A DNA stretch of 32,000 bases. Source: Trichodesmium erythraeum IMS101 (GTDB lineage Bacteria; Cyanobacteriota; Cyanobacteriia; Cyanobacteriales; Microcoleaceae). The DNA is taken from assembly GCF_000014265.1 (NCBI RefSeq), contig NC_008312.1, positions 6,510,001-6,542,000 on the forward strand, in the 5' to 3' direction. The translations under genes and the position numbers were made by a program. The notes below the pieces were generated by a model. The model was not told the DNA's origin. It was given only the letters and a program-made list of their open reading frames with translations, and made no database searches. The first letter of the stretch is position 1. The number at the start of each line of letters is the position of its first letter. Below are positions 3,232 through 22,598 of the stretch, one piece after another.

Positions 3232-3285
3232 ATATATTTTTTAGCCTATGTTATAAATATAACACCTGATTTTGCAGCAAAAATA

Positions 3286-4373: not shown

Positions 4374-4680
4374 ATATGAGATTATCAAGCAGTATAAAAA
4401 AAGATATAAAAGAAAATCTAGAAGCTAAATTAGCAAACAAAGCTAAAAAAATAGAGTACATTCTATTCCAATACTTTCTGCCTTTTTTATGCCTTGAAAA
4501 AAATAAAAATAACTAGCAAAAATAACTTTATAAAGAAATATATAAGAGAGAATAAAGTATAATCAAAAATAATAAAAGTTAATCAAAAAATATGGAAGTA
4601 AAAGCCTTGTATTTTACATATAATTAGACTCAAAAGATTTTCAAACTATTATACTCTGGTTCCAAAAACCGAACCTACAC

Positions 4681-5646
4681 CTAATCTAAATCTTCAATGA
4701 CACTGAGTAAACCATCAAAAGAACCTACTTTAAAGAACAAAATAATATCCCCTGTAATTTGTAAATCTTCAATATCAAATTTTGCCTGAGCTAAAAGGAC
4801 AGAATTATTGGGTTCCTCCATTGGTAATAGCTGTGCAATATCTTCCTCAGCATAACAAGGAACATCATAGTAAATTTGTTTATATAACTTATTTCCTAAA
4901 GACCCCATCACACCATTAATGACAATATTCCCTACTTCAGTTAATGTCCCAATTTGGACAATATCCAAATCCGCATTTTCTAGGTTTTTTCCAGTGAGGA
5001 CAGCAACTAGATTAGCTGCACTTTCTCTGGGAAAAACCAACTTTGCCGAACCAGCAAAATACCCCTTAAAATCTAATTGTATCGAAGATAATTTATCGTA
5101 ACCTAAACGTTGCCTCAATACCTCTTGTACTTCAACCTTTGCTAATAACTTTAAGAAAGGTACTTGTAGATTAATTTGAGATTCTATCATTTCGTTTAGC
5201 ATTTTCGCCCCTTGGCCAATACCGATATTAATTAACTCAGTTAAAATATCTAGTTGCTTGTCTGTCAGATTTACCACTTTATTTTCCACTGCTTTGAGTG
5301 CTTCAGAAATTGCTTTTATAATTTCAAGAGGTTTTGGGGGTTTTTGTAAGATCATAAATGCTCCTAACTCTTCACATTGAGTTCGGGTAGTATCTTGAAT
5401 ATCTGCTGATAATACAATAACAGGAATTTTAGAGCCTTTCTTTTGAAGTTCTTTTAGTACCCCAAAACCATCAAGCTCTGGCATTAACAAATCTAGAAGA
5501 ATACAATCAGGAGAATTAGTGGCAACCATTTCCAAGCATTCTTGACCATTACTAGCTTCTATAATTTTATGGTCATCTTCTTTGATAGCTTTTTTGACCA
5601 TCCGACGGGCAAATGCCGTATCATCTGTAATTAAAATTAAGGCCAT
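4681..5646 (-). CDS. Response-regulator receiver fused to a CheC-like CheY-P phosphatase domain
   Basis: REC: ILITDD, ILLDLLMPELDGF, IVLSAD, LQKPPKP. The C-terminal domain carries two CheC-type active-site motifs. The first is DILTELINIG...(22 aa)...P, which fits D/S-x3-E-x2-N-x22-P exactly. The second is TLTEVGNIV...(22 aa)...P, which has E-x2-N-x22-P. The ORF-track start at 5751 is TTG. The ATG at 5646 (MALILITDD) places REC at the N-terminus and is preferred. Confidence 0.85.
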   Translation of the reverse strand: MALILITDDTAFARRMVKKAIKEDDHKIIEASNGQECLEMVATNSPDCILLDLLMPELDGFGVLKELQKKGSKIPVIVLSADIQDTTRTQCEELGAFMILQKPPKPLEIIKAISEALKAVENKVVNLTDKQLDILTELINIGIGQGAKMLNEMIESQINLQVPFLKLLAKVEVQEVLRQRLGYDKLSSIQLDFKGYFAGSAKLVFPRESAANLVAVLTGKNLENADLDIVQIGTLTEVGNIVINGVMGSLGNKLYKQIYYDVPCYAEEDIAQLLPMEEPNNSVLLAQAKFDIEDLQITGDIILFFKVGSFDGLLSVIEDLD

Positions 5647-7334
5647 AAATTTTGATTCACCACTTATTACTAAGCTTGGATTATACCTCATCGTGTTCTT
5701 CAGAATTAATGTAGTGGATTTATACACCTGATCAAGTTTAAGTTGGGTCAAACGATAGTAAAACCTAACAATAGTAAGTATTTTTTTTGATTGACAGATA
5801 AAAATTAGCTTATTATTTTTGTATTCAAATCATTCAGGAGAAATAATTATGCGGGTTTCAAACTATTACTATATTTAAATATCTTGCTTTTGCCTTTATT
5901 TGAGTATATTTTTTAATGGTTATTAGTCAGATAAAACTTAGCCTTGAATTAAATTATAATCAATAAAAAATTATGCTACTATTTACTAATATTAGATAAT
6001 AATAACAGCTTATAAAACAAAAATATTAATTATATTTACTCAAGCTTATAGTTTAATTAATTGACTAAAATCTTACCTAGTTTTAATCACAAAACAAACT
6101 ATTATACAAGGATTAAAATTTATTCTTTTTACTATATTTTTGTCAAAAAAATGATGTTATCTTAACTAAAAAATCGGAAAAATAAAGTAGATAAGTCTAT
6201 AATTACTATCTATTTTGACTTAATATAGAAGTTTTAATAAAAATCATGACTGTTGGCATAGCTATTGTAAAATGACACTTTATTAATTTTTTTTTCGCAT
6301 ATTTCATTATTTATATTATGTAGATTATTCAATTGATGTAATTGTTAAAGTAGTTAATGATCATGAACAAATATTTGAACCAATAATTAAATTATTGGAT
6401 AAATTTTTTTTACTATGAAGACCTTAAATATTAGAGAAAATACTATAAATCCAACATTATTTTCACTATTTATATTATCAATATTATAAATATATCAAGA
6501 TACATAATAATATTTTTTACGAATTTTTTTGGAAAAAGTAAATGGTTAAAATTTATCATTTTGTTAACTATTTATTGGCTAATTTTTTAGCAAATTTTAC
6601 TTTATACAGATCAATATTTTTCAAAATTGGGGATAGGAAATTAGATAAAATAACAACAATTAGTATATAATGCAGATATCAATTTAACCGAGAGGTTTTA
6701 AAGTAATAATTTAAGATGTTAGTCATCTTAAATTGCTGATATTTTAATGCCATATTTTAGATAAAATTGTTTAAATAAAACATATTTTTAAAGGTATTGT
6801 AAGAATAATTATTTATTTATTTAATTTTGGAGGCATAATTACTATTAGCTGTATAAGTATTTTAATCTAATTTTTCAAGTTTTTTCCTATATATTTGATA
6901 CAGCAATTTTTTTATGTAGTTTATGCTCACAATTAGTACAATAAATTTTATATATAATTATAATTAATTGTAAAAATTAAGTTCACCGCCATTTTAACCA
7001 TACTGAATTCAATTTTTAATCAAAGCACCCAAACTATGTCATAAATTGATTTTAATAATTTAGTATTTCTTGCTATACTTTAAATATTCAAGCTTTTAAC
7101 TACAATAAAATCTTACTGTTTAACTAATTGATGAGGATATTCTCATGGGAAAGCTTCTATTTGTTTGACAATATTTTGTGTATATCTTTATTCTAAAATT
7201 CACTAAAATATGAATCAAACAAAAAAATATCTTAAAAAACTTGTAAAAACTCAGGAGGAAAATAGTTTATATGCTGGCTGTTTTCCTTTCACCGTTAAAT
7301 CAAGGATTATAACGGAAGTCGCCAACAGCTATGG

Positions 7335-9740
7335 ATGAAAATGGAAATAGATGAAGATATTCAAGCTTTCCTAATTGACAGCTATGAAACTATTAATAAG
7401 CTAGAGAGTGATTTGGTAGCACTAGAAAAACACTCGATAAATCCTGAGTTGATCCAATGTATTTATCGTTCGCTTCATACTTTAAAAGGAAACAGTGGAT
7501 TTCTCGGTTTAGATACCCTTCAATCTTTAGCTCATGCAGGGGAAAATTTATTGGCCTGTTTGCAAGATGGTAGAATTATTATCACTCCTGAGATTATGAA
7601 TGTTTTACTTCAGGCCATTGATGGGATTAAACAAATTCTCTACTGTCTTGAAACAACGGGAAAACAAGGAGATTATAACTATAACTCCCTCTTAAAGAAT
7701 TTGGCAAGTATCACCTCATCAGAACAGACTGAAAAAGCCCAAACAGAGGTTTCTTTAGACTATGAAGATTCTTGGCCTCAGTTGGAAAAAGTAGACAATT
7801 CTTCTCAAAATTTGAGCACCACTGATGCTCAACAGACAGCCTTTGTTGAGGAACAAGCACTCCCTGAAAAAACCGAGCAATTATTGAATACTTCAGAGAT
7901 TTCTTCAACGCTTCCTTTATCAGGAAATCTCTCGGAAGATATACTAACTACTAATTTAACTGCAAGTATCTCAGGTAATTACATTCGAGTAGATGTACAA
8001 CTGTTGAATCAATTGATGAATTTGGTGGGGGAGTTGGTCTTATGTCGTAACCAAGTCTTGGTATTTAATAATAGACAGACTGATAGTGTTTTTGGTGATA
8101 CTTCCCAACGTTTAGACTTAATAACAACAGAATTACAAGAAGGGTTAATGAAAACTCTGTTGCAACCAATTCGTAAAATTTGGAATAAATTTCCTAGAGT
8201 AGTGCGGGATTTATCTTTGTCCTTAGGCAAAGAAATAAATTTAGAAATGGAAGGAGAAGAAACGGAGCTAGATAAAACCTTAATTGAAGCTATTTCAGAT
8301 CCCCTCACCCATTTAGTGCGTAATTGTGTGGATCATGGTATTGAACACCCAGATATTAGAATTAGTAAAGGTAAACCACCTATCGGTAGACTTTGGTTAA
8401 GAGCTTTCCATGAAAGTGGTTATGTCAATATAGAGATAGGGGATGATGGGAGAGGAATTGATATAAAAAGGATTAAAGCTAAAGCTCTTCAGCGTCATAT
8501 TATTACTCATGAGCAAGCATCCTCTTTAACTGAAAATGAGGCATATAATCTGATTTTTATTCCAGGATTTTCTACTGCTCCAAAAATCACTAATATCTCA
8601 GGACGTGGAATAGGGATGGATGTAGTCCGAAATAACATCGAAAAAATTAGTGGTACTATTAATATTTCCAGCCAACTAGGTCAGGGAACTACTTTTAAAT
8701 TAAAAATTCCCCTGACTTTAGCTATTATCCCTACCTTAATTGTTACTACTAATGGCGATCGTTATGCAATCCCCCAAGTTAGTTTATTAGAATTAGTACG
8801 TCTGGAAGGGAAAGATGCTAAAAAAAAGGTAGAAATGGTTCATGGTGCCCCTATTTATCGATTGCGGGGTAATCTTCTGCCTCTTGTATATTTAGATAAT
8901 GTACTACAATTGGAAGCAAATAAGTCCCACCGTTATCCTTTGGCCACTCCCTGGTTAGAGGGTGTAAGTCTCAAGGGACAAAGTGATAACCTTGATATTC
9001 TCAATATTGTTGTTGTGCAAGCCGCGCATCAGTCTTTTGGTTTAGTGGTTGACGCTATTAATGATACTCAAGAAATTGTAGTTAAACCTCTAGGAAGACA
9101 GCTCAAAAAGATTTCTTGTTTTGCTGGAGCAACAATTATGGGAGATGGAAAGGTAGCATTGATTTTAGATATTCAGGGACTAGCTCAAACTGTTCATCTT
9201 GTTTCAGAAGAAAAAGATTCCTTGATAATAGCGCTAGAAAGTGAACCTCAACAAGCTTTTGATGAGTTGGAGATGTTATTGTTATTTTCTGGACCTGCTC
9301 ACCGACGGATGGCTATTGCTAGGTCTAAGGTTGCTCGTTTGGAGGAATTTCCCATTAGTTCTGTAGAGCATGTTGGTAATCAAAAGGTGATTCAATATCG
9401 TGAAAAAATCTTACCTTTGATTTATTTATCAGAGTTTTTTGCTACAAATCAATTATCTTCTCAAAGCCAAAATGTTCCTCAATTATTAACTATTCAAGTG
9501 GTTGTAGTAGTGATAGATGAGGATAATTTAGTAGGATTTGTGGTGGAGCAAATTATGGATATTGTGGAACAAGAAATTAAGATTAAATATGCTGCTATTG
9601 AAAAAGGAATTGATTATGCGGCAGTTATTCAGGAGAGGGTGACAGAAATTTTGAATGTGGAGGAAATAGTTAAGGTGGCTAATTTAAAGTTTGATAGAAA
9701 TTTTAAAGAGCAATTGTCAGACAAACAACTGGCAACATGA
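7335..9740 (+). CDS. cheA: Chemotaxis histidine kinase CheA (Hpt, dimerisation, HATPase and two CheW-like domains; no receiver)
   Basis: 801 aa. Hpt with phospho-His context SLHTLKGNSGFLG. Dimerisation region IRVDVQLLNQLMNLVGELVLCRNQ. N-box HLVRNCVDHGIE, G1 GDDGRGID, G2 SGRGIGMDVV. P5 CheW-like domain RYAIPQVSLLELVRLE...KVALILDI. A second CheW-like domain follows: LLLFSGPAHRRMAIARSKVARLEEFP...VTEILNVEEIV. Confidence 0.95.
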   Translation: MKMEIDEDIQAFLIDSYETINKLESDLVALEKHSINPELIQCIYRSLHTLKGNSGFLGLDTLQSLAHAGENLLACLQDGRIIITPEIMNVLLQAIDGIKQILYCLETTGKQGDYNYNSLLKNLASITSSEQTEKAQTEVSLDYEDSWPQLEKVDNSSQNLSTTDAQQTAFVEEQALPEKTEQLLNTSEISSTLPLSGNLSEDILTTNLTASISGNYIRVDVQLLNQLMNLVGELVLCRNQVLVFNNRQTDSVFGDTSQRLDLITTELQEGLMKTLLQPIRKIWNKFPRVVRDLSLSLGKEINLEMEGEETELDKTLIEAISDPLTHLVRNCVDHGIEHPDIRISKGKPPIGRLWLRAFHESGYVNIEIGDDGRGIDIKRIKAKALQRHIITHEQASSLTENEAYNLIFIPGFSTAPKITNISGRGIGMDVVRNNIEKISGTINISSQLGQGTTFKLKIPLTLAIIPTLIVTTNGDRYAIPQVSLLELVRLEGKDAKKKVEMVHGAPIYRLRGNLLPLVYLDNVLQLEANKSHRYPLATPWLEGVSLKGQSDNLDILNIVVVQAAHQSFGLVVDAINDTQEIVVKPLGRQLKKISCFAGATIMGDGKVALILDIQGLAQTVHLVSEEKDSLIIALESEPQQAFDELEMLLLFSGPAHRRMAIARSKVARLEEFPISSVEHVGNQKVIQYREKILPLIYLSEFFATNQLSSQSQNVPQLLTIQVVVVVIDEDNLVGFVVEQIMDIVEQEIKIKYAAIEKGIDYAAVIQERVTEILNVEEIVKVANLKFDRNFKEQLSDKQLAT

Positions 9741-9794
9741 AAGGTGAAACTTCTCTGGAAAATACAGCAATTCTTAGAAAAGGAAAAAGCACTA

Positions 9795-9831
9795 GCAAAA
9801 ACCAATAAACATAAGTTTTTGCTGGTTTTCC
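9795..9831 (+). terminator. Weak hairpin plus T-tract between cheA and cheW (possible attenuator or terminator)
   Basis: gcaaaaac (9795-9802) pairs with gtttttgc (9815-9822) around a 12-nt loop, followed by tggttttcc. The stem is A/U-rich and therefore of low stability. Confidence 0.25.
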
Positions 9832-9946
9832 GACCTCAGCTAAACCTACAGTATTATTAAGTATTAAGTTTAGAGAGTTGAAGCTAAACTACAAACAAAG
9901 ACTTTTTTATAACTAATTATCTAAACATAAGATTTGCTTATAAAAA

Positions 9947-10402
9947 ATGGAAAATCTAATTCAAAAACCGACTCAAGAAAATAAATTTTGTACTTTTTAC
10001 CTGGACAAACTATTCTTGGGAATAGAGGTAGAAAAAGTGCAAGAAATTATTCGTTATCAAAAGATAACTCATGTTCCTTTATCCTCACCAGAAGTGGCTG
10101 GATTAATTAATCTTCGGAGTCAAATTGTGATTGCGATTGATTTGCGAAGGAGATTGAATTTAACTGATAATAAAATGGAAAAATTACCTCTTAATGTAGT
10201 AATATCTTCTGAAGATGAAACAGTTAGTTTATTAGTGGATGAAGTTGGGGATGTTATTGATGTATCTCAAGAGAGTTTTGAAAAGCCACCGGAAACATTG
10301 AGAGGAAAAGTACGGAGATTAATTCGAGGCGCTTATAAGCTAGAAAAACAACTTTTACTAATTCTTGATGTGGAAAAAGTAATTAATATAAATGTTATTT
10401 AG
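9947..10402 (+). CDS. cheW: Chemotaxis coupling protein CheW
   Basis: 151 aa, a single CheW domain: FCTFYLDKLFLGIEVEKVQEIIRYQKITHVPLSSPEVAGLINLRSQIV...LLLILDVEKV. Length is typical for CheW. Confidence 0.9.
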   Translation: MENLIQKPTQENKFCTFYLDKLFLGIEVEKVQEIIRYQKITHVPLSSPEVAGLINLRSQIVIAIDLRRRLNLTDNKMEKLPLNVVISSEDETVSLLVDEVGDVIDVSQESFEKPPETLRGKVRRLIRGAYKLEKQLLLILDVEKVININVI

Positions 10403-10406
10403 ACTC

Positions 10407-11523
10407 TATAGCAATCCCATATTGGTCGCAACAGATATAATAGTAAGAATAACAGATCTAAGAAAAAGACAAAAAATGAATATTATAGATAAACTAAATG
10501 ATTTTATTAATCAAACAAAAGAGTCTAAAGAAATTAAAAGGGCCTTGGCCGTAAAAATGACCTTGTCAGGAAAATCCTACCATGAAGTCAAAGAATTATT
10601 AAATGTTTCTCACAGTTTTATTAGTGAATGGAAAAACCAAGCATTATTTCATGGTGTAGAAAGTTTAAGGCTTCAGTATCAAGGGAGACAAGGTTACTTA
10701 AAAACGGTCGAAAAAGAGAAAACAATTGAGTGGTTGAGAGCACAAGATTATCTTAGGTTATCAGATTTAAAAAACTACTTACAGGAGCAATATGATGTGG
10801 TTTTTGAGTCTAATCAAAGTTACTATAACTTGTTTAAAGAAGCGGGCATAAGTTGGAAAAAAACTCAAAAAAAGAATCCTGCTAAAAATGATGAATTAGT
10901 AGAAGTTAAAAGAAAAGAAATACAGGAATTTTTAGCTAAATGGCAACCAGAAATAGAAACTGGAAAGCTTACAGTGTTTATGATTGATGAATGTCATCTT
11001 CTATGGGGAGACATATTAGGTTATGCTTGGGGAAAAACAGATGAAAGAATAGAAATTGCAATTAAAAATGAAAAAGAAAGACAGACTTATTATGGAGCTT
11101 TAGACTATAAAACCAAGGAATTTCTTGTGCAAGAATATGAGAGTGGAAATACTAAAAATACTATTGAATTTATTAAATATTTGCAGAAGCAAAGACCGGG
11201 CAACAAATTGGCAATATTTTGGGATGGGGCAACTTACCATAACTCTCAAGAATTTCGAGAATATTTAATGACAATTAATCAATACTTATCAGAAGAAGAA
11301 TTGTTGATAAATTGTACAAGATTTGCTCCCAATGCTCCGGAGCAAAATCCTGTTGAAGATATTTGGTTACAAACCAAAAATTTCAGTATTACTTTTTATC
11401 ATCTTTGCAGTTCTTTTAAAGTAGTTAAGTGGCTATTTAAGTTTTTTGCGGATGGTCAAATATTCAATTTCCCAAAACTTTTTCAGTATGAAATTTTGCC
11501 GCAACCTACTTAGGATTGCTATA
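10407..11523 (+). mobile_element. IS630-family insertion sequence with TA target-site duplication
   Basis: Terminal inverted repeats tagcaatcc (10409-10417) and ggattgcta (11513-11521). They extend imperfectly to about 24 bp (17 of 24 matches by hand alignment). The element is flanked by TA (10407-10408) and TA (11522-11523), the duplication expected for IS630/Tc1-mariner. It contains one intact DDE transposase gene. Confidence 0.85.
10476..11513 (+). CDS. IS630-family DDE transposase
   Basis: 345 aa from the ATG at 10476 (MNIIDKLNDF). N-terminal HTH region (SYHEVKELLNVSHSFISEWK). DDE_3-type catalytic residues in FMIDECHLLWGD, IFWDGATYHNS and APEQNPVEDIW. The stop codon lies inside the right inverted repeat. 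The ORF-track extension to 10392 reads through the left inverted repeat and the end of cheW, so it is not believed. Confidence 0.9.
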   Translation: MNIIDKLNDFINQTKESKEIKRALAVKMTLSGKSYHEVKELLNVSHSFISEWKNQALFHGVESLRLQYQGRQGYLKTVEKEKTIEWLRAQDYLRLSDLKNYLQEQYDVVFESNQSYYNLFKEAGISWKKTQKKNPAKNDELVEVKRKEIQEFLAKWQPEIETGKLTVFMIDECHLLWGDILGYAWGKTDERIEIAIKNEKERQTYYGALDYKTKEFLVQEYESGNTKNTIEFIKYLQKQRPGNKLAIFWDGATYHNSQEFREYLMTINQYLSEEELLINCTRFAPNAPEQNPVEDIWLQTKNFSITFYHLCSSFKVVKWLFKFFADGQIFNFPKLFQYEILPQPT

Positions 11524-13024
11524 TTTGCTTTCCTGATTTTTAAGTAGTTAGAATCAGGGCAATCAATGTTTGCTAGCAATCAATATGCTATTTATCATAC
11601 CAGATCCAGAAAAAGTGTTTATTATTACTAATTGTTAGGACGCGATATTATATAAAGTATTTAATTTTACCTGATTATTGTAATAGATAATTTTTTAACA
11701 ACGGTATTACTTTTAATATTTTACTAAAGAATAAGTGTTTATACCAAATCCATCAAGTGTGAGAGGGTATTTTTTCAACTTACAGCTTCTAACCCTAAAC
11801 GTGGAAACGGATTAGTTATAAATGTTCCATAGAACGTTTGTACAAAAAATATTAAAATTAACACAATTTGAGAGCGTTAATAATGCAAAAAGTTTATTAC
11901 CTTCGTATTAATTACTTTTACTTAAATTTATAAAGTTTGACAAAAAGTTAGTATTAATAAATGCTAATTAATATAAAAGCTTTTGTCAAGGGGTGAATAC
12001 TTAAAGTAGTTTGCCAAATATTGAGTTTAACAGGAGGCCTATATCAAGGGTTATACAGAAGAATTAGAAGTATGATTTAACTTAAAATAAGTATTTTTAT
12101 GAAGAGCTATAGCAATAATTTATCCTAATTGATTCGGAGATAAAAAATGTTATATAATAGTAAGTATATATTGAAACTCAAAGTACCTATTGAGGAGTTT
12201 CAATATTATGCTCCTGAATGGCGATCGCTGGATTTTTTAGCTTTTTTTAGGATATAAAAAAGCTTTAATTCACTTTGATATCCTACTTTCTGTTAAAACA
12301 AAGCAGAATGAATAGGATCAACTTTAATTAAGTTTTTTCTATAGTAAACCTGATTTGCTTTAATAAGAATATAATCTAGTTATTCAGCTATTTTATAAAG
12401 TTTAGTTTTTTTGTGGGGATATATCTATCTCACAGTCAACCTACTAGTTTTTTTACTTCCTAGTTTTGAAATTTGGAGGTTAAAGAGGGTTACCTTTTCT
12501 CTTCTCTTTTGGAGAACTAAAAAAGTTGATAGAAGCGAAGGGATTTGATTGTTCAGAAAATGAAACTTTTCTATAGCTTAAATGATTCAATAATTGCTAT
12601 AATAGAAGAGCTAAAGCTGTATCATAACCATTTTCTTTATTCATTATTTGGAGCTTGAGTAACAAATAGTTTTGATAGTTCAAACAATAATGGTTTCTCT
12701 CAGCATAATTTAATAACTCATAGTAGGGAGAATTATTATTATTCCCAATAATATGGACACGACCAAATGGATTTTTTCTCTCTAGTTTTTTGATCATGAA
12801 ATTTACTCAATACGATAATTGATGCTTATATTTAGTGCTAATAATTTTTTATATAAAACTTAAATAACAATCATAATATAATTATATTCAGTTGATTGAT
12901 AAATAAACAAAGTTACCTTTTAAGGGTGAGGCTTCAGGCTTATTTTTTCACAGAATACCCTATTTCAGTGTGTGATCTAGATCTTAATATCTTTAACCTT
13001 TTAGCCATTAAGTTAATAAGTAAT

Positions 13025-13039
13025 TCCTAGAACTTCTAG
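13025..13039. repeat. Perfect 15-bp palindrome CCTAGAA-C-TTCTAGG, 45 bp upstream of cheB
   Basis: Read directly from the sequence: 7-bp arms with a 1-nt spacer. The operator function is hypothetical, and palindromes of this size are expected a few times by chance in 32 kb. Confidence 0.3.
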
Positions 13040-13083
13040 GCTTAGAGTTTGCACCAGAAAATTCAAGTGATGATTAAGTTATT

Positions 13084-14142
13084 ATGCCTAAATTCCGTAT
13101 CCTGATTGTTGATGATTCGGTAATTGTTCGCCGAATTATCAATAATATCCTATCTGAGTCAGATTGGATAGAAGTAGTGGGTGTAGCCCCAAGTGGCCAA
13201 ATTGCTTTAGCAAAGATTCCTCAAGTTAACCCTGATCTGATCATACTTGATGTGGAAATGCCAGAAATAGATGGTTTAGAAACTTTAAAAAGAATTCGAC
13301 AAACCTACAAGCAACTTCCAGTGATTATGTTTAGTGCTATTACTCAACGTGGGGCAATAGCAACATTGGATGCCCTGACTTTAGGAGCTAATGACTATAT
13401 TACTAAACCTGCTAATATGGGCAGCAAAGAGAAAGCCATTGAATACATCAGAAAACAGTTGATTCCTAAAATTCAAGTTTTCTGTCACCGTAAAGTTAGT
13501 TTAACAAAACATTGCTTGGCCCCATCTATGACTTCTTTTCAGAGAAAGACTTCTACTCAGCTGTTGACCTTGAAATTAGAAATTGTCGCTATTGGAGTTT
13601 CTACAGGAGGACCTCAGGCTTTATATCAGCTTTTACATAAGTTTCCCGCCAGCTTTCGGGTTCCTATTGTTATTGTTCAACATATGCCTCCTGTTTTTAC
13701 TACTCGGTTAGCTGAAAGGTTGTCTTCTCAATGTAAGATTCCTGTGCATGAAGCAAAAGACAGAGATGTGATTAAATCTGGAGAAGCTTGGATTGCACCA
13801 GGGAATTATCATATTATTTTAGTGAGGGAAGGTAAACAAGTTCGTATTCAGACCATACAAACCCCTCCTGAAAACTCCTGTCGTCCAGCGGTGGATGTTT
13901 TATTTCGTTCAGTAGCTAAACTTTATCAAGGTGCTGTACTTGGGGTTGTATTAACAGGCATGGGCCAAGATGGACTCCATGGTTGTACTTCTATTCGTGA
14001 AATGGGAGGACAAGTTTTAGTCCAAGATCAAGCTAGTAGTGTGATCTGGGGAATGCCAGGAATGGTTGCTAATGCGGGACTTGCTGATCAGATTTTACCT
14101 TTAAATAAATTAGCTGAAGAGATTATCCGTAGGATTGGTTGA
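13084..14142 (+). CDS. cheB: Chemotaxis response regulator protein-glutamate methylesterase CheB
   Basis: 352 aa. REC (ILIVDDS, LIILDVEMPEIDG, ITKP) plus a methylesterase domain. The Ser-His-Asp triad contexts are IGVSTGGPQAL, VQHMPPVFT and LTGMGQDG. Confidence 0.95.
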   Translation: MPKFRILIVDDSVIVRRIINNILSESDWIEVVGVAPSGQIALAKIPQVNPDLIILDVEMPEIDGLETLKRIRQTYKQLPVIMFSAITQRGAIATLDALTLGANDYITKPANMGSKEKAIEYIRKQLIPKIQVFCHRKVSLTKHCLAPSMTSFQRKTSTQLLTLKLEIVAIGVSTGGPQALYQLLHKFPASFRVPIVIVQHMPPVFTTRLAERLSSQCKIPVHEAKDRDVIKSGEAWIAPGNYHIILVREGKQVRIQTIQTPPENSCRPAVDVLFRSVAKLYQGAVLGVVLTGMGQDGLHGCTSIREMGGQVLVQDQASSVIWGMPGMVANAGLADQILPLNKLAEEIIRRIG

Positions 14143-14283
14143 TTAGAGAGTTGGGAGTCGAGATTTGGGGATAAATTGATTGATATTTCATCAATTTACT
14201 TCTGGGGAAAAAATATTTTATATTTGATTAATTAAGTAGTTATTAATACTTAATTTTATTACTAAAAGAGATGCTCCCAATTT

Positions 14284-15108
14284 ATGTCTATTAATTCTAT
14301 TGATTTTAAATATATTCGTCAACTTCTTGACCAAAAAACATCGGTTATTTTACCGTATGATAAGGTTTATTTTGTTGAGTCTCGTTTGGCTCCTATAGCT
14401 AGTTCAGAAAACCTTAATTCTGTCAGTCAATTAATTACTAAGCTGCGGAACAATCCTTTGAATGATTTACATAAACGGGTAATTGAAGCTTTGATGACTA
14501 CTGAAACATCTTTTTTTCGGGATAATTATCCTTTTGAAGCTCTGCAAAAATTTATCTTGCCAGAATTAATAAGTAAACAAAAAATGAAAAGTTCTCTTAG
14601 TATTTGGTCTTCTGCTTGTTCTAGTGGTCAAGAGCCTTACAGTATAGCAATTTTATTACAGGAATATTTTCCCGTAATTAACAATTGGAATGTTTCAATT
14701 ATTGCTTCTGATATTTCTGAGCAAATGCTAGAATTGGCAAGGATTGGACGTTATAATCAGCATCAAGTTGAGAGAGGATTATCAGTTTATTTCCAGAATA
14801 AATATTTTCAGCGGCAGGGAAAGGAATGGCAAATTATTCCAGAAATTTGTCGTAAGGTAGTATTTAGGCAATTAAATTTATGTAAAAAATGGAATAATTT
14901 ACCAAAAATGGATTTAATTTTTTTACGAAATGTATTAATTTATTTTAATATTGAGACTAAGCGAAATATTCTTTTTAAAGTTCGACAGTTATTAAAGCGT
15001 GATGGTTATTTATTTCTGGGAGGGGGAGAAACAACGATTAATATTGATGATAATTTTGAATTAGTTAGGTTTAATAGAGCTATTTGTTATCGGTTGCGTA
15101 AGAAATAG
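14284..15108 (+). CDS. cheR: Chemotaxis protein methyltransferase CheR
   Basis: 274 aa. N-terminal CheR helical domain (TSFFRDNYPFEAL) and SAM-binding motif WSSACSSGQEPYSIAILL, followed by IASDIS and IFLRNVLIYF. Confidence 0.93.
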   Translation: MSINSIDFKYIRQLLDQKTSVILPYDKVYFVESRLAPIASSENLNSVSQLITKLRNNPLNDLHKRVIEALMTTETSFFRDNYPFEALQKFILPELISKQKMKSSLSIWSSACSSGQEPYSIAILLQEYFPVINNWNVSIIASDISEQMLELARIGRYNQHQVERGLSVYFQNKYFQRQGKEWQIIPEICRKVVFRQLNLCKKWNNLPKMDLIFLRNVLIYFNIETKRNILFKVRQLLKRDGYLFLGGGETTINIDDNFELVRFNRAICYRLRKK

Positions 15109-16290
15109 AATCTGCTTAATAAGTCTGTAATACCAAGAATGGAAAAATAATGTTATTAGTCATACTAAATCTGGATATGAAAGTATGCTTATTCCATAGC
15201 AAAATCTCTAATTTAGCAACAGCTATAACTTTAAATAATACTCTCTTAAAGTTTGCGGATTTGGTATAATAAGGTTGATAAAAATACTTGCTCAGGACTA
15301 AGGATAATGTAGAATTTGAGTCTTGTGGTCGAGATAGATTTGGAGAAGACATCAATTGAGAAATTAAGTAGTTAAAGCTATAGGATGCATGCAGTGTGTC
15401 GTTTAAGGATAATTCAAAAAATCTATTAGGCTTGTGGGATGGAACCTGTGGAACTTTTTTACAAGATTTGCTTATTATATAGGAAAAAGTCTTGATCAAG
15501 TTAAGGAATTATTATTAAAATATCTGACTGACCAATTGAAATATCCTTCAATTAAGATGAAGCAAATTTTAACTTGAATAAGTGATCATTATCCAACCTA
15601 TACCCAGGTTAAGTTTATAAATTTTGAAGATTTTTTAGGTAAGACAGGGTAAGAATGGCGGTTGACTTTGTCAATATAGATTTAGATAACAGAGTTACTC
15701 TCTTTCAGCTAATAACATTCATTAAGCAACAATAAGATATGTGACGATTGCAGTTAATAATGGATCAGCATAATTATTACTTTCTCACCCAGATAACATA
15801 TTCCCAGACTCTTCAATGACATACTTAACAAGGACTTGAGCACCGTGACGGTCATTTAGTTACCTAGATTACGTAGGTAGGACAAAAAAGCTTAACTATA
15901 TTAAATTTTGTAAAATAACTCCCAACTTATCTAGAAAGTTAACTTGAGAATAAATTTATATTTTATTACATGGACAAATTTTAACGCCTAACTACTTAGT
16001 TTTATAATAAAATAGTTAACTAACCTAAAAAAAGCCCCCAATCTTAATCTACGGAATATAAGATTCTGACTTCTGATTCTTAAAAAATACCCTAGCTATT
16101 TGTAGCAATTTGTAGCAAAAATTTATCTTAATCACACTTGGTATAACATTCTTTCTTCAAAATGTTATAAAAGCAATAATCGAATTTAGAGATATTCAAT
16201 GGAAACTCCCTAAATTAGATAGGGTTTAATTAATTTAACTTGATATTAGGGATTTTTTTCCATCTATTTTTAAGACTCAAATTACAGTTT

Positions 16291-19200
16291 CTAAAATTTA
16301 AACTGATTTACTAATTCATGTAAGTCTCCTGCCGTTTTGGATAACTCAGTTGCAGATTTTTGGGTTTTGGCTGCTCCATTACTGGTACTTTGGGCTGTTT
16401 TTGCCACGCTGGTAATATTAAGGGCAATTCCCGATGACCTTTCTGCTGCTTGGTTAACATTACGGGCAATTTCATTGGTAGTGGCGGTTTGCTCTTCTAC
16501 CGCCGAGGCGATCGTACCTTGGATGTCATTAATTTGACTAATAATAGTAGTAATTTGACCGATAGCTTCTACTGCTCCTCTAGTATCCCCTTGAATAGCT
16601 TCAATTTTTTGACTAATATCTTCAGTTGCACTAGCGGTTTGTTTTGCTAATTCTTTAACTTCATTGGCAACTACCGCAAAACCTTTCCCTGCTTCTCCCG
16701 CTCTTGCTGCTTCAATAGTGGCATTAAGAGCAAGAAGGTTGGTTTGTTGAGCAATAGAAGTAATAACTTTAATCACATTACCAATTTCTGCACTACTAAC
16801 TCCTAACTTACCAATAGTTTCATTAGTCGTTTCAGCAGTTTTTACAGCAGTTGTGGCAACTTGAGCAGCATTAGTAGCATTTTTAGCAATTTCTTGGATG
16901 CTAGTAGTCATTTCTTCTACACCAGTAGCAACTGACTGAACATTAGCGCTCACTTGTGCAGCGTTACTAGAAACTGACTCTGCTTGAGTCGAGGTTTCTT
17001 GAGATGCTTGACTCATAGTTTGACTTTCCGCCATCATCTCCTCAGATGACTTGGCCACAGCGATCGCTGCTTTCGCAATTTTTTTTACTTGTTCAGTTAG
17101 GTTAGCTGCCATACCATTCACATTATCAGTCAACTCTTTCCATGTTCCAGCCACTCCTTCCACCTTCGCTTGGCCTCCCAATGTTCCTTCGGTCCCTACT
17201 TCTTTAGCCACCCTACTGACTTCAGATGAAAACCCATTGAGTTGGTCTACCATTTTATTCAAAGTAGTCTTCAGTTCCAATATCTCCCCTTGAGCATCAA
17301 CAGTAATTTTCTGAGTTAAGTCCCCCTGAGCAACTGCTGTAGCCACCTCAGCAATATTTCTCACCTGTAAAGTGAGGTTAGCTGCCATACCATTCACATT
17401 ATCAGTCAACTCTTTCCATATTCCAGCCACTCCTTCCACCTTCGCTTGGCCTCCCAATGTTCCTTCGGTCCCTACTTCTTTAGCCACCCTAGTTACTTCA
17501 GATGAAAACCCATTGAGTTGGTCTACCATTTTATTCAAAGTAGTCTTCAGTTCCAATATCTCCCCTTGAACATCAACAGTAATTTTCTGAGTTAAGTCCC
17601 CCTGAGCAACTGCTGTAGCTACCTCAGCAATATTTCTCACCTGTAAAGTGAGGTTAGCTGCCATACCATTCACATTATCAGTCAACTCTTTCCATGTTCC
17701 AGCCACTCCTTCCACCTTCGCTTGGCCTCCCAATATTCCTTCGGTTCCTACTTCTTTAGCCACCCTACTGACTTCAGATGAAAACCCATTGAGTTGGTCT
17801 ACCATTTTATTCAAAGTAGTCTTCAGTTCCAATATCTCCCCTTGAACATCAACAGTAATTTTCTGAGTTAAGTCCCCCTGAGCAACTGCTGTAGCTACCT
17901 CAGCAATATTTCTCACCTGTAAAGTGAGGTTAGCTGCCATACCATTCACATTATCAGTCAACTCTTTCCATGTTCCAGCCACTCCTTCCACCTTCGCTTG
18001 GCCTCCCAATATTCCTTCGGTTCCTACTTCTTTAGCCACCCTACTGACTTCAGATGAAAACCCATTGAGTTGGTCTACCATTTTATTCAAAGTAGTCTTC
18101 AGTTCCAATATCTCCCCTTGAACATCAACAGTAATTTTCTGAGTTAAGTCCCCCTGAGCAACTGCTGTAGCTACCTCAGCAATATTTCTCACCTGTAAAG
18201 TGAGGTTAGCTGCCATACCATTCACATTATCAGTCAACTCTTTCCATATTCCAGCCACTCCTTCCACCTTCGCTTGGCCTCCCAATATTCCTTCGGTTCC
18301 TACTTCTTTGGCCACCCTACTGACTTCAGATGAAAACCCATTGAGTTGGTCTACCATTTTATTCAAAGTAGTCTTCAGTTCCAATATCTCCCCTTGAACA
18401 TCAACAGTAATTTTCTGAGTTAAGTCCCCCTGAGCAACTGCTGTAGCCACCTCAGCAATATTTCTCACCTGTAAAGTGAGGTTAGCTGCCATACCATTCA
18501 CATTATCAGTCAACTCTTTCCATATTCCAGCCACTCCTTCCACCTTCGCTTGGCCTCCCAATATTCCTTCGGTTCCTACTTCTTTGGCCACCCTACTGAC
18601 TTCAGATGAAAACCCATTGAGTTGGTCTACCATTTTATTCAAAGTAGTCTTCAGTTCCAATATCTCCCCTTGAACATCAACAGTAATTTTCTGAGTTAAG
18701 TCCCCCTGAGCAACTGCTGTAGCCACCTCAGCAATATTTCTCACCTGTAAAGTGAGGTTAGCTGCCATACCATTCACATTATCAGTCAACTCTTTCCATA
18801 TTCCAGCCACTCCTTCCACCTTCGCTTGGCCTCCCAATATTCCTTCGGTTCCTACTTCTTTGGCCACCCTACTGACTTCAGATGAAAACCCATTGAGTTG
18901 GTCTACCATTTGATTCAAAGTAGTCTTAAGTTCCAATATCTCCCCTTGAGCATCAACAGTAATTTTCTGAGTTAAGTCTCCCTGAGCAACTGCTGTAGCT
19001 ACCTCAGCAATATTTCTCACCTGTAAAGTGAGGTGATCTGCCATACCATTCACATTATCAGTCAACTCTTTCCAAACACCAGATAACCCTTCTACCTTGG
19101 CCTGGACTCCTAATTTACCTTCTGTACCCACTTCCTGAGCAACCCGCGTTACTTCTGAGGAAAAACTATTAAGTTTGTCCACTATTTGATTAACAATGCT

Positions 19201-19743
19201 CCCAATACGGTAGAATTCTTCATTTAAGGGTTTTCCTTCGAATTGAAAGTTAATTTTTTTTGACAAATCTCCATTCGCCACTGCTTCTAAAACCAGAGAA
19301 ACTTCCCTACTAGGTTTGGTCCAATTATTAATTAGTTCATTGAGGCTATCAATACTTGATTTCCATGAGCCTTTAACTTCTGTGAAACTTTTTCTAGTGG
19401 TTAATTCTCCTTCTTGCCAAACTTCACGACTAATGCGCCCAATTTCTTCTGCAAAGTTTTGATTAATTGCTATCATTTGATTAAAAACAATAGCTACTTC
19501 TCCTAAGCCATTATTTTCTGGAATACGCACAGTAAAGTCTCCATCTCTAGCAGCTTTCATAGCTACTAATAATGGATTAATATTAGGATTATTATTTATA
19601 TCAATATCAGTTTTTAGTTGAGACCTTGGAGTTGATAAAATTGTTTCAGATTCAGTTATAGTTTCTGGTTTTTTTTCTACATTTATTTCAGTATCTTCAA
19701 AGAATACCTGAAGACCAGAATTTCGTTTTTTAGGAATTGTCAT
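16291..19743 (-). CDS. Soluble methyl-accepting chemotaxis protein with a poly-HAMP array (about 9 di-HAMP units) and a C-terminal MCP signalling domain
   Basis: 1150 aa with an ATG start and no hydrophobic TM segment anywhere. Residues ~56-877 are consecutive HAMP pairs (A.GDL..KI....GE...L...N.M...L pattern). The signalling hairpin tip is highly conserved: [37 protein letters not shown]. Two canonical methylation-site consensus matches are present ([10 protein letters not shown] and [10 protein letters not shown]), consistent with the adjacent CheB and CheR. Confidence 0.95.
17113..19044 (-). repeat. Seven in-frame tandem copies of a 276-bp (92-aa, di-HAMP) unit, about 98-100% identical
   Basis: The Met codons of MA(A/D)(N/H)LTLQ recur at 19044, 18768, 18492, 18216, 17940, 17664 and 17388, an exact period of 276. 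The 17648/17924 units look identical by eye, as do 18200/18476. Other copies differ at a handful of sites, giving I/T, V/A, S/T and K/Q substitutions. A more divergent di-HAMP unit precedes the array (residues ~146-233). Confidence 0.95.
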
Positions 19744-20077
19744 TTTAGCTATTAGTTATTATTTATGAACAAATGCAGCTATTTGCAGTCAGCTTTAAAT
19801 TATAATTTTGTTGGTACTTATCCCTTTAAAAGAGGATAGCTAAGACCTTATTGATTTTGTCAGAATTTTCTACTTTGACTTTCAACTTATTTAAAATATG
19901 ATTCATCAAGTATAAGTCTGTTACTGCTAGAACAAAGGGGTGGAAAAAGGAATTATTTTTAATAATCTAATTATTAACCTATTTTTACTAAAAAAGTTTA
20001 GATCCCTAGAAACCCAGTAGCTTTTAAAATCTCTTAAAATTGCAGGCTTATTTATGATGAATTAATGGTAAGTTTAG

Positions 20078-20878
20078 TTATGATAAATCTCTGGCTATTT
20101 CCATATAATTTTTAACAATTTGACTTGTGGGTGAAATATGAGAAATTGGCATACCCTCCTGTTGTGAGCGATAAACTAAAAGGGATTCTGGAATTTTATA
20201 TAGGGGATAAGACATTCTTTTTACTGCCTCCTCAATTTCTTCAAAAATGCTATTTTTTAAGCTTTTGTTTGATTTATGTGATACTTTAGATTTCGTATAA
20301 CGATTAAAAACAACTGTAAATCTATTAATTTTATGTATCGTCATTTCCTGAATGTTCTGACAATAAATTTTGAATTTTTCTAACGCCTCTAGAGAAAAAA
20401 CACTACTATCAATAGGAATAACAGCCTCATCTGCTGCTCGTAAACTATTGAGCATAAATAAGCCTGTGTCTGAGGGCACATCAATTAAAATATAATTATA
20501 ATAGGATTTAATTAGGGTTAATATTCGATTTAAAGTTCCGACTTTATCTTTACCTTGCTGCATTAAAATAGAAGCTGTTGCTAAATTTAACTCAGAGGGA
20601 ACTAAATGAAGATTTTCTATTTGTGTTGCTAAAATTGCCTGAGTAATAGGAACTCCTTGATATTGATTAAATTGATTTAAAATTACATCATAAATAGAGT
20701 TTTCTAAATTATTTTCATCAATTCCTAACCCAGAAGTTGCATTCGCTTGAGGATCAAAATCTACTACTAATATTCGACTTTTTGGATTAATTATAGTTAA
20801 ACATCCAGCAATATTTATGCAAATAGTAGTTTTTCCTGTGCCTCCTTTGAGGTTAGCGAAAGCAATAGTTTTAGCCAT
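20078..20878 (-). CDS. ParA/MinD-family P-loop ATPase (deviant Walker A)
   Basis: From the ATG at 20878: MAKTIAFANLKGGTGKTT (deviant Walker A KGGxxK[ST]), VVDFDPQANAT (ParA switch region), ILIDVPSDTG (Walker B). The ORF-track start at 20920 is TTG. It lies 334 bp upstream of the MCP gene on the same strand. Confidence 0.85.
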   Translation of the reverse strand: MAKTIAFANLKGGTGKTTICINIAGCLTIINPKSRILVVDFDPQANATSGLGIDENNLENSIYDVILNQFNQYQGVPITQAILATQIENLHLVPSELNLATASILMQQGKDKVGTLNRILTLIKSYYNYILIDVPSDTGLFMLNSLRAADEAVIPIDSSVFSLEALEKFKIYCQNIQEMTIHKINRFTVVFNRYTKSKVSHKSNKSLKNSIFEEIEEAVKRMSYPLYKIPESLLVYRSQQEGMPISHISPTSQIVKNYMEIARDLS

Positions 20879-21524
20879 AATTGTTGAATTATGATCTTTA
20901 CTATATATTTTTTTGATCAAAACAATGATTCTACTAAATCTAGTTATTATAAGTTGATTATAGACTCAATAATAATATAGATATCCATAATTAGCTTTTC
21001 TTTCCGATAATTTGAGTAATGATACTATTGCTAGTTTTTCAATCTGAAATACTCCAATTGTTTTTGTTAATATCATTATACATAACAATCTTCTTTTTAC
21101 CTTTTTCCAAGTCTGACCACTTTTGGGAAATAGGGAATAAGCTATAGGTTATAGGTAAAAGTCTCGGAGTTTATTTATAGTTTTCTTAGATCCTTTCGCT
21201 ATAGCGGTTATTATAGCAGTCTTATTTAAGTTGTAAGATTTTTTTTGCTGAGAGTTAAAAGTTAAATACTCAAGAGTTAGGGGCTATAACTTCAAAGTTT
21301 TTCAAGTAAAATTAATGGCTGTAAAATTATCGCAACTAATGAGTAAATTACTATATATAAATTTCTAGATAAGTTAATATGTTGTAACAAAAGTTATTAT
21401 AATGAATTAAATTTACATAAAAAATCAACTAGATATAAAGCTCCAAAATTGATAAGATAGAGGAAGAACTTCGACTACTAAACTTTAGCTTTTGACTTCT
21501 TCATCCTTTCACAAAGCTGTTAAT

Positions 21525-22598
21525 TTAAGCAGTATCATAGCTAGAATGCCTGACACAATTTCGGCCATTTTTTTTAGCAAAATAAAGAGCTTTATCGGCT
21601 TGAGAAATTAATTCGTCTAGATGTGATTTTATAGTCGGAATAGTTGTTGCTACACCTAAACTAATAGTAATATATTTATCAACTTTTGAATCCTCATTAA
21701 CAATTTTTAAACTATTAACTTGCATACGAATACTTTCAGCAATAAACATAGCTCTATGTTTGCCTGTATTGGGTAATACTACCACAAATTCTTCTCCTCC
21801 ATAACGAGCAGCTAAGTCTGTTGTTCTTGTTAAAGGTTTTTTAATTTCTTGAGCTACTTTTCTTAAACAAATATCCCCTTCAGGGTGACCATAAGCATCA
21901 TTAAATAATTTAAAAAAATCAATATCTATCATTATCAAAGAGATGGGCTGAGCGTCGTAGATAGATTTTTTCCAATCTTGTTGTAAGACTGTTTCCCAGC
22001 AATAGCGATTAGGAATACCTGTCAAAGGATCTGTATTTGAGATTTTTAGTAAATGTTCTAGCTGCTCATTTTGTTTCTTAAGTTCATCAGTTCTTATTCT
22101 GACTTCATGAGTTAATTTTTCATTAAAGCTATTTAATTGTTGTTCTCTTTGCTTGAGTTTTTGTACTAAATTAATTCTTTCCAAAGAATAGCGAATAGAA
22201 CGGATTAAGACTTCTGCTGAAATTTCATTTTTCACTAAATAATCCTGCGCTCCTTTTTGAACTACTTCAAGAGAAAAATCCTCATCATTCTTACCAGTTA
22301 AAACAATAATTGGAATATTAGTAGTTATTTCTATCATCTGGGAAATAGTCTCAAATCCTTGACTATCAGGTAGTCCTAAATCAAGTAAAATAACATCAAA
22401 ATTTGTTTGATTAAGTTGCTTAGTTGCTAAAGATAATGTACTACAATGAGTCACAAAAAACTTTAAGGATGATTCAAATTTTAATAACTGCTTAATAATA
22501 AAAGCATCCCCTAGATTATCTTCTACTAATAGGGTATTTAAAGAATCTTTTTGCTTAAGATAATTGTTCCTAAACATAGTTTTATTTTTATTAGACAT
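21525..22598 (-). CDS. Response regulator with GGDEF output (diguanylate cyclase, WspR/PleD-like)
   Basis: 357 aa. REC (LLVEDNLGD, VILLDLGLPDSQG, VLTGKND, DYLVKN), a coiled-coil linker, then a GGDEF domain. The active site RYGGEEF is intact, and an RxxD I-site (RTTD) lies exactly 5 residues upstream, the same spacing as in PleD. Confidence 0.92.
   Translation of the reverse strand: MSNKNKTMFRNNYLKQKDSLNTLLVEDNLGDAFIIKQLLKFESSLKFFVTHCSTLSLATKQLNQTNFDVILLDLGLPDSQGFETISQMIEITTNIPIIVLTGKNDEDFSLEVVQKGAQDYLVKNEISAEVLIRSIRYSLERINLVQKLKQREQQLNSFNEKLTHEVRIRTDELKKQNEQLEHLLKISNTDPLTGIPNRYCWETVLQQDWKKSIYDAQPISLIMIDIDFFKLFNDAYGHPEGDICLRKVAQEIKKPLTRTTDLAARYGGEEFVVVLPNTGKHRAMFIAESIRMQVNSLKIVNEDSKVDKYITISLGVATTIPTIKSHLDELISQADKALYFAKKNGRNCVRHSSYDTA

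Follow-up and report, generated by a model that had tools for sequence, protein, structure and literature searches.

A Trichodesmium erythraeum chemosensory cluster of class F5 with a CheY-CheC fusion, an orphan ParA and a plausible c-di-GMP output

What does a complete CheA/CheW/CheB/CheR system do in a non-flagellated, globally important nitrogen fixer such as Trichodesmium erythraeum? A search of the literature on this cluster in Trichodesmium found no paper. The genes in question lie in a stretch of 32,000 nucleotides of strain IMS101 (contig NC_008312.1, positions 6,510,001 to 6,542,000), which we analysed as a whole and refer to as the window. A first-pass annotation, made from the sequence alone, had described them as a counterpart of the Pseudomonas Wsp system with enzymatic outputs only. 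The genes it named are present at the positions it gave, with the domains it assigned (Pfam). None of the ten open reading frames (ORFs) of the cluster is disrupted, and all catalytic and signature motifs that we checked are present, including the acidic pocket, the phospho-Asp, the Thr/Ser and the Lys of all four receivers. Based on a comparison with related loci, we consider it probable that the region is the T. erythraeum copy of an F5 cluster of filamentous cyanobacteria, in which a receptor array would control the second messenger cyclic di-GMP (c-di-GMP).

The hallmarks of class F5 are an extra CheW domain in CheA, the gene order cheA-cheW…cheB-cheR and receptors of the 38H type (PMC10746217, PMC6759762); 99% of F5 CheA proteins carry the duplicated CheW domain (PMC10782961). 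CheA of T. erythraeum shows the architecture P1-P3-P4-P5-P5′ and ends in two CheW domains, as judged by Pfam. It is a non-hybrid protein and has no receiver domain, as the first-pass annotation had also described, and it contains H48 (within HTLKG) as well as the N, G1, F and G2 boxes. Full-length relatives with 44-58% identity, aligned across both CheW domains, are encoded in Acidobacteriota, Gemmatimonadota, Planctomycetota, Verrucomicrobiota, Nitrospinota, Myxococcota and cyanobacteria. The dominant order in their loci is cheA-cheW-MCP-(cheY)-cheB-cheR, MCP being the methyl-accepting chemotaxis protein. The order cheA-cheW…cheB-cheR is found in most of 80 related genome loci and also in the window, where an insertion sequence (IS) lies in between; the CheB protein carries the motifs GVSTGG, QHM and GMGQDG. 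The receptor is of the 38H type: the two arms of its signalling hairpin, from the last HAMP domain to Glu1017 at the hairpin and from there to the C-terminus, measure 133 amino acids each, corresponding to 19 + 19 heptads by a count made by hand rather than with class profiles, and the alignment to Tsr, a 36H receptor, shows a symmetric gap of one heptad.

Because the duplicated CheW domain, the gene order and the 38H receptor are all present, the cluster is, by these sequence marks, a member of F5, a known and widespread class, and not a Wsp-type system of the alternative cellular function (ACF) class by descent. The marks of the latter are found only in part. A protein composed of a receiver (REC) and a GGDEF domain is indeed encoded together with the che genes, but CheA lacks the C-terminal receiver of a hybrid kinase, and the receptor is soluble and 38H rather than membrane-bound and 40H, the receptor type with which the ACF class pairs (PMC10746217). 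Since the cluster falls into F5, Wsp is the wrong template for it. The analogy fails with respect to family membership and survives as a hypothesis about the output, namely c-di-GMP. Myxococcus xanthus Che7 was also considered as the closest model and was rejected, CheA7 having a single CheW domain (PMC3945109).

Where is the CheY of this F5 cluster? In related loci, a receiver gene encoding 119-139 amino acids is located directly upstream of a gene for a CheC protein of ~200 amino acids. This arrangement with separate cheY and cheC genes was found in Okeania (L007; we number the compared loci), L105, Nostocales, Coleofasciculus, Microcoleus, L008/L009 and L106-L108. At the junction in Okeania, the end of cheY (…ALQA) is followed by a TAA stop and five further codons (RWKFK) before cheC starts with VENLTDEQ…. 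In the window, the junction reads …ALKAVENKVVNLTDKQ…: relative to Okeania L007 there is a 6-nt in-frame deletion, and the stop codon of cheY is gone. The first and second half of the resulting protein share 78% and 70% identity with their separate Okeania counterparts. Its receiver half is CheY-like, with RR468 and CheY proteins as the best matches in the PDB, and is the orthologue of the free CheY of the relatives. Judged from these alignments, the REC-CheC gene arose very recently, when the loss of 6 nt took away the stop codon and joined cheY to cheC. The same fusion is present in a diverged sister species or marine population (protein P0122, 69% identity; locus L098, 82% nucleotide identity) and therefore predates that split.

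These results change the picture of the receivers. It had been stated that the cluster contains no stand-alone CheY and that every receiver is fused to an enzyme. This is correct inside the coordinates that had been chosen, but a stand-alone receiver of 144 amino acids (REC144) is encoded ~1 kb to the left of them, and the argument from a missing CheY arises because a 6-nt deletion has fused cheY to cheC. The inference of enzymatic outputs only is a by-product of this event in Trichodesmium; a free CheY is retained in the Okeania-like loci and in other cyanobacterial relatives.

The Pfam match of the CheC half is marginal (23.6 bits); a profile built from 13 members of its family matches CheC of Thermotoga maritima with an E-value of 1e-14. 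Both active-site motifs of the form E-x2-N-x22-P are present, at residues 133 (D…E..N…P) and 233 (G…E..N…P), the second one with a G instead of the D/S in D/S-x3-E-x2-N-x22-P. The cheC gene adjoins cheA in the Okeania-like loci, in the metagenomic loci L008/L009 and in all seven genome loci of Nostocales and Coleofasciculus, and it belongs to the same cluster in L010, L107 and L108; L011 does not extend far enough to show it. A distinct family of REC-CheC proteins with 327 amino acids (48% identity) also exists; its members occur, among other places, within an ACF-like cluster and next to PAS kinases. Furthermore, some relatives encode a REC-CheC paralogue of 337-350 amino acids between cheR and a PAS kinase gene (L008 3297-4310, L106 3694-4746, L107 16364-17410), which is absent from the window. 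The receiver of this paralogue is degenerate, without an acidic pocket and with the phospho-Asp replaced by Asn or Cys, and is accompanied by a Pro/Ser-rich linker and a CheC-like domain.

The stand-alone receiver REC144 is most similar to the phytochrome response regulators RcpA/Rcp1 in the PDB (E-values of 1e-37 to 1e-34) and shows the acidic pocket ED as well as the motifs LLDLNLP and KP. Its gene and that of a PAS-domain sensor kinase, which is probably its partner, keep their place near the che genes in Okeania L007, the metagenomic loci L008/L009, L106 and L107; therefore, the stand-alone receiver belongs to the conserved neighborhood. A fused form consisting of PAS, histidine kinase (HK) and receiver domains, PAS-HK-REC, is encoded near the che genes in five Nostoc loci, in Coleofasciculus and in Chlorogloeopsis (L015-L075), and in the Microcoleus cluster (L010) the kinase occurs as PAS-HK-REC-Hpt. 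Based on this synteny, the PAS kinase and the Rcp1-type receiver make up a conserved side module of the cluster, outside the part to which the first-pass annotation had been confined.

The receptor of the cluster contains no transmembrane segment (maximum Kyte-Doolittle mean over 19 residues of 1.22), and its N-terminal tail of 56 amino acids is followed by nine di-HAMP modules of 92 residues. The earlier estimate of about 18 HAMP domains is thus exact. Seven of the nine modules are nearly identical and are coded by a 276-nt tandem repeat. The methylation-site consensus, which had been noted as well, occurs on both arms (TGVEEMTT at residue 940 and SAVEEQTA at residue 1080). A near-identical di-HAMP array in front of the MA domain, without a transmembrane segment, is the definition of a soluble poly-HAMP receptor (Coles et al. 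2026, PMC13446029), and both features are found here, as is the intragenic amplification that characterizes the poly-HAMP chemoreceptors of that study. Their description concerns structure, and the roles of the family are stated to be uncharacterised, whereas the loci compared here define its genomic partners, namely the F5 core, ParA and GGDEF. The copy number of the di-HAMP repeat varies greatly among relatives (L007, L010, L019, L105-L108), and the receptors range from 434 amino acids in Nostoc to more than 1800 in L106. The Okeania assembly has N-gaps inside the HAMP repeat. Long HAMP arrays are found where ParA is present as well.

The REC-bearing GGDEF gene, the parA gene and the poly-HAMP receptor gene are adjacent in seven loci (the window, L007, L091, L105, L106, L107 and L108), and in the same seven parA is located directly upstream of the receptor gene. 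L007 of Okeania (77% CheA identity) and L091 (85% ParA identity) are close relatives, L105 shows 76% CheA identity, and L106-L108 are at 53-54%, L106 at 54% and L107 and L108 being distant relatives. The protein is a simple REC-GGDEF in L007, L091, L105 and L106, the last of which has an extra REC before ParA. It takes the form REC-PAS-GGDEF-EAL, encoded on the opposite strand, in L107 and the form REC-TransReg-Hpt-REC-GGDEF in L108. The placement of cheA/cheW and of cheB/cheR differs among the seven loci, so that the linkage survives inversion and rearrangements. A scan of metagenomes with ParA yielded seven loci, two of them close relatives, and for at least ten further clusters, Prochloraceae among them, the longest contigs of ParA orthologues (53-63% identity) have the same length as those of CheA or CheC homologues, which we read as co-location. 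As evidence we counted only the ParA-linked cases from cyanobacteria; GGDEF genes near the distant F5 loci of Acidobacteriota are, by our rough estimate, about as frequent as chance would predict. The first-pass annotation had named in advance a result that would speak against a common pathway, namely that relatives do not keep the GGDEF, ParA and CheC genes together with the che genes, and the comparison gave the opposite: REC-GGDEF, ParA and MCP stay together in the seven loci. The kept synteny makes c-di-GMP a plausible lineage-specific output of the cluster. The receptors differ in length, those of ParA-less clusters measuring 434-765 amino acids compared with 916 to more than 1800 in the ParA-linked ones. 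The latter also carry an R/K-x-PGR-x-x-FF motif at the extreme N-terminus, which is absent from the ParA-less receptors of Nostoc and Microcoleus.

The cyclase contains RTTD-x5-GGEEF (RTTDLAARYGGEEF at residue 258), with DIDFFKLFND upstream of GGEEF. It thereby shows GG[DE]EF and, five residues upstream, RxxD, the marks of a diguanylate cyclase subject to product inhibition, and the motif check agrees with the earlier prediction of an intact GGEEF site and RxxD I-site. In Microcoleus (L010 4480-5568), the gene for a REC protein with a class III nucleotidyl (guanylate/adenylate) cyclase domain stands next to that for PAS-HK-REC-Hpt, in the place where Trichodesmium and Okeania have REC-GGDEF. 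This exchange suggests that second-messenger outputs are interchangeable across versions of the cluster.

The ParA protein carries a deviant Walker A motif with the signature lysine (KGGTGKT), and no parB gene is nearby. Together with the position next to the gene of a cytoplasmic receptor, this is the pattern of the ParA proteins of che clusters. Its PDB match to Soj has an E-value of 7e-28. A role as the carboxysome positioner McdA was considered and rejected, as McdA matches with an E-value of only 3e-11 and the gene is linked to that of the MCP. ParA homologues are common in che operons with cytoplasmic receptors, for which PpfA-TlpT is the model (PMC2829493), and by analogy we propose that the orphan ParA is a positioner of the cytoplasmic receptor array.

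Taken together, we propose the following mechanism. The receptor, CheA and CheW would form a cytoplasmic array, and ParA would position and partition this array on the nucleoid in the way that PpfA handles TlpT in Rhodobacter, probably via the conserved basic peptide at the N-terminus of the receptor. Methylation by CheR and demethylation by CheB would provide adaptation. CheA~P is expected to feed CheB and the CheY domain, and the tethered CheC would make CheY~P of Trichodesmium short-lived, so that it could act as a phosphate sink. REC-GGDEF, fed by the P1 domain of CheA or by a HisKA/Hpt relay, would turn phosphorylation into c-di-GMP under feedback through its I-site, and c-di-GMP would be the diffusible output of the cluster in an organism without flagella.

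How does this compare to known systems? F5 systems such as Che1 of Azospirillum brasilense (the F5/38H example in PMC6759762) share the duplicated CheW domain, the AW…BR order, the 38H receptor and CheB/CheR, and the relatives also share the single-domain CheY. The present cluster differs in its host, which lacks flagella, in its soluble receptor with 18 HAMP domains, in the fusion of CheY to CheC and in the attachment of CheC, the pair of PAS-HK and Rcp-type receiver, ParA and REC-GGDEF. Pseudomonas Wsp, of the ACF class, has the che core and a REC-GGDEF protein with an I-site in common with the window, and both may have c-di-GMP as output rather than control of a motor. Wsp contains a hybrid CheA-REC (WspE), a transmembrane receptor and two CheW proteins, and no ParA, CheC or free CheY. 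In contrast, the window encodes a single CheW, a non-hybrid CheA with two CheW domains and a soluble 38H receptor. CheOp3 of Rhodobacter sphaeroides with PpfA-TlpT is alike in the orphan ATPase of the ParA family, whose gene neighbors that of a soluble receptor in a che cluster without ParB, and in the conserved basic N-terminal peptide of that receptor. The che class and the receptor type, here poly-HAMP, are different. In the Rhodospirillum centenum Che3 cascade, CheA controls the kinase CheS3. That cluster (PMC4436063) resembles the one described here in combining CheB and CheR with an extra PAS kinase and receiver and in a non-motility output, but its CheA is a hybrid, in contrast to the non-hybrid protein found here, and its output is cyst formation. 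Among the cyanobacteria, there are also the Nostoc loci, which encode PAS-HK-REC, CheC, CheY, CheA, CheW, HAMP-MCP, CheB and CheR, with short receptors (434 amino acids), separate CheY and CheC and no adjacent ParA or REC-GGDEF.

The cluster itself has been rearranged. The IS630-type element, which the first-pass annotation had not listed, starts 5 nt after the stop codon of cheW and is bordered by imperfect terminal inverted repeats of 23 nt; public assemblies break exactly at this site. In a locus of the sister species (L103, 82-89% nucleotide identity), cheA, cheW, cheB and cheR are followed by the MCP gene on the opposite strand, without an IS, and the spacer between cheW and cheB measures ~370 nt compared with ~3 kb in the window. 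CheB of this locus (L103 5520-6179) consists of the methylesterase half only (219 amino acids) and lacks a counterpart of the receiver encoded at 13084-13427 of the window. In L105, the genes for CheA, CheW, REC-GGDEF, ParA and MCP share a strand, and cheR and cheB come next on the opposite one; the window differs from it by a single inversion of the block from the GGDEF gene to cheB.

A number of observations weigh against an F5 array with a c-di-GMP output, and the other explanations of the locus draw on them. Several concern the phosphodonor of the cyclase. Its receiver is 36% identical to REC144 and 46% identical to the receiver of a REC-HK protein of Okeania, compared with 24-25% to the receivers of CheY and CheB, which are 34% identical to each other, and its 54 matches in the PDB include no CheY. 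The GGDEF protein of L108 carries its own Hpt domain, an Hpt-bearing protein adjoins (probably) REC-GGDEF in L106, and in Microcoleus a REC-guanylate cyclase is encoded next to PAS-HK-REC-Hpt. The receiver similarity and the Hpt-linked variants favor a HisKA/Hpt relay as donor, which may itself be under the control of CheA, as CheS3 is. Given the receiver identities and the Hpt domain of the L108 protein, direct donation by CheA seems doubtful to us. The same observations would fit two separate circuits, with an F5 pathway acting via CheY, CheC and CheB and a REC-GGDEF protein driven by the PAS-HisKA/Hpt relay, the two being coupled indirectly, for example through a REC-HK like CheS3. REC144 as an Rcp1-type partner of HisKA kinases and the REC-CheC fusions found elsewhere beside PAS kinases point the same way, and a PAS kinase inside a Che cascade has a precedent in Che3 of R. 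centenum with CheS3 (PMC4436063). However, the window and the related loci L007, L091, L105, L106 and L108 have the GGDEF gene on the strand of parA and the MCP gene and immediately upstream of them, not next to the PAS kinase gene; the sixth related locus, L107, is the exception, with its GGDEF gene on the opposite strand. The P1 domain of CheA is an Hpt domain, too, and percent identity between receivers is a weak predictor of the kinase partner. Moreover, Trichodesmium has lost the REC-HK gene: a tblastn search for remnants of the Okeania gene in Trichodesmium matched only paralogous domains, as expected for an absent gene rather than a pseudogene. We consider two separate circuits possible but rather unlikely. 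A functional coupling of the cyclase to the receptor array seems probable to us. A Wsp-like system following ACF logic, in which outputs are enzymatic only and CheA directly phosphorylates REC-GGDEF as the sole output, would agree with the intact GGEEF and RxxD motifs, with the seven loci in which REC-GGDEF is syntenic with ParA and MCP, and with the lack of a free cheY next to cheA in Trichodesmium. It is at odds with the F5 rather than ACF hallmarks, the non-hybrid CheA and the non-transmembrane receptor, with the free CheY of Okeania-like and other cyanobacterial relatives, from which the Trichodesmium fusion is separated by a 6-nt event, and with the membership of REC144 in the conserved cluster. 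Neither the receiver of the cyclase, which is not CheY-like, nor the Hpt-linked GGDEF variants in relatives are expected from it, and we judge it to be improbable.

The remaining points against our reading are of other kinds. ParA and REC-GGDEF are absent within 10 kb of the clusters of Nostocales, Coleofasciculus and Microcoleus. Of the N-terminal receptor motif, PGR has become SGL in the window (residues 1-15, encoded at 19699-19743, read NSGLQVFF). For Nostoc punctiforme, a mutated cheAWRB+MCP locus is on record (Campbell et al. 2015 and Duggan et al. 2013, as cited in PMC5913679), and deletion of the cheB-like gene, the MCP gene and cheAWR is described there as having no effect on hormogonium differentiation, motility and phototaxis (Campbell et al. 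2015 in PMC5913679). This locus is related to the present cluster and possibly its orthologue. The earlier statement that there is no characterized cyanobacterial system of this composition has to be narrowed accordingly: the family is not wholly uncharacterized, because that related locus has been mutated, as far as the citing article tells. Signs of relaxed constraint are present in Trichodesmium, judged from its sequences. On the branches of the window and the sister species (compared with L103, L098, L105 and L007), the ratio of nonsynonymous to synonymous substitution rates (dN/dS) generally lies at 0.35-0.5 for the genes of the cluster, and the CheY domain shows 0.43-1.15. A comparison of the two Okeania-like loci with each other gives lower values: 0.11-0.18 (cheA, cheW, cheC and cheY) and 0.26-0.30 (parA and the cyclase gene). 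Since this comparison includes no housekeeping control gene, the raised values may be a genome-wide property of Trichodesmium. An IS has inserted into the cheA…cheR run, between cheW and cheB, and the REC-HK gene has been lost. One could thus regard the T. erythraeum cluster as a decaying relic that is no longer a working pathway; the inversion relative to L105, the sister-species CheB without receiver, the CheY-domain dN/dS of up to 1.15 and the altered receptor motif would all be in line with this. On the other hand, ten intact ORFs with every catalytic motif, dN/dS values below 1 for most genes, a sequence that is identical in several independent samples and a fusion kept in two diverged species speak against decay, and we think a relic very unlikely. 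An F5 array coupled to c-di-GMP remains the reading that we prefer.

The features of the window are collected in Table 1. Its G+C content is ~31%, and positions 1-10460 match a contig of GCA_018457135.1, as well as several assembled read sets, at 100% identity. A search of the whole window against Rfam at the gathering threshold, and of 29200-32000 at an E-value threshold, revealed no riboswitch or other RNA, and a search of the window for tRNA genes found none. The scan of 3700-23300 for promoters and terminators gave counts no higher than in shuffled sequence, so that operon boundaries cannot be inferred from it. NCBIfam provided no family-level name, all matches except that of the generic GGDEF domain model being below the curated cut-off. 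The spacers at 5752-7334, 11524-13083 and 15109-16290 (1.2-1.6 kb) contain no ORF of at least 80 amino acids, no Rfam match and no detectable gene remnant.

Table 1. Features of the 32,000-nt window and of CHAT-domain protein genes near the cluster (positions refer to the window unless a locus is given)
Feature	Position	Strand	Basis
HxlR regulator	1382-1738	-	Pfam
PAS-HisKA-HATPase sensor kinase, H-box HDLQEP at residue 168	2089-3231	+	Pfam, motif
Stand-alone 144-aa receiver (REC144), Rcp1/RcpA type	3286-3720	+	Pfam, PDB matches
REC-CheC fusion (REC 5290-5646; CheC-type phosphatase 4681-5280)	4681-5646	-	Pfam, profile, motifs
CheA: Hpt, dimerisation, HATPase, two CheW stretches; no REC, no P2	7335-9740	+	Pfam, motifs
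CheW	9947-10402	+	Pfam, E 6e-32
IS630-family element, 1117 bp; DDE_3 transposase ORF ~10476-11513 (within ORF 10392-11513)	10407-11523	+	Pfam DDE_3/HTH_33, inverted repeats
CheB: REC and methylesterase	13084-14142	+	Pfam, motifs
CheR methyltransferase	14284-15108	+	Pfam
Soluble poly-HAMP MCP	16291-19743	-	Pfam, hydropathy, arm lengths, alignment to Tsr and TM1143
276-nt tandem repeat coding for di-HAMP modules, 7.6 copies, 97% identical	17095-19191	-	Tandem Repeats Finder
Orphan ParA/Soj-type ATPase	20078-20878	-	Pfam AAA_31/CbiA, PDB match to Soj
REC-GGDEF diguanylate cyclase (predicted)	21525-22598	-	Pfam GGDEF, E 3e-50, motifs
PcrA/UvrD helicase	23207-25552	-	ORF, Pfam
CHAT-domain protein genes	L001 1-1708 (~1-2.7 kb upstream of window position 1); L107 203-2827		

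The map is based on ORFs and a Pfam domain search of the window. Some neighboring genes are of a different kind. At the right flank, a divergent UvrD-like helicase with an N-terminal extension of 190 amino acids is encoded at 26914-29223, an ORF for an XRE-type helix-turn-helix protein at 29468-29650 looks degenerate, and the gene for a DUF1156 zinc-ribbon DNA methyltransferase starts at 29956 and runs off the end of the window. The G+C content of this part (26914-32000) is raised to 0.37-0.43, and it may be a restriction or defence island. A gene for a CHAT-domain protein is located 0.6-2.3 kb from the che cluster both on the Trichodesmium contig and in the distant relative L107.

What does the cluster tell us about Trichodesmium and the chemosensory family to which it belongs? 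It is best described as a lineage-specific variant of a known chemosensory class, assembled from accessory parts each of which is of a known kind. The comparative loci split it into a core with CheY and CheC, a PAS-kinase branch and a module of ParA, GGDEF and a long poly-HAMP receptor, and the definition of this module as one that travels together is part of what the comparison newly contributes. It provides a biological context for the poly-HAMP receptors in the form of defined genomic partners. The CheY-CheC tether adds a natural experiment in which a response regulator is bound to its own phosphatase. The most far-reaching reading would go beyond this: the F5 array, based on the receptor with 18 HAMP domains and partitioned by ParA, would have been rewired for second-messenger signalling, with CheY as a tethered sink and a CheA-fed REC-GGDEF as the sole output, and c-di-GMP would control colony behavior. 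We consider this reading unlikely. If it were true, the cluster would bear on puff and tuft aggregation, gliding and type IV pili in a bloom-forming nitrogen fixer.

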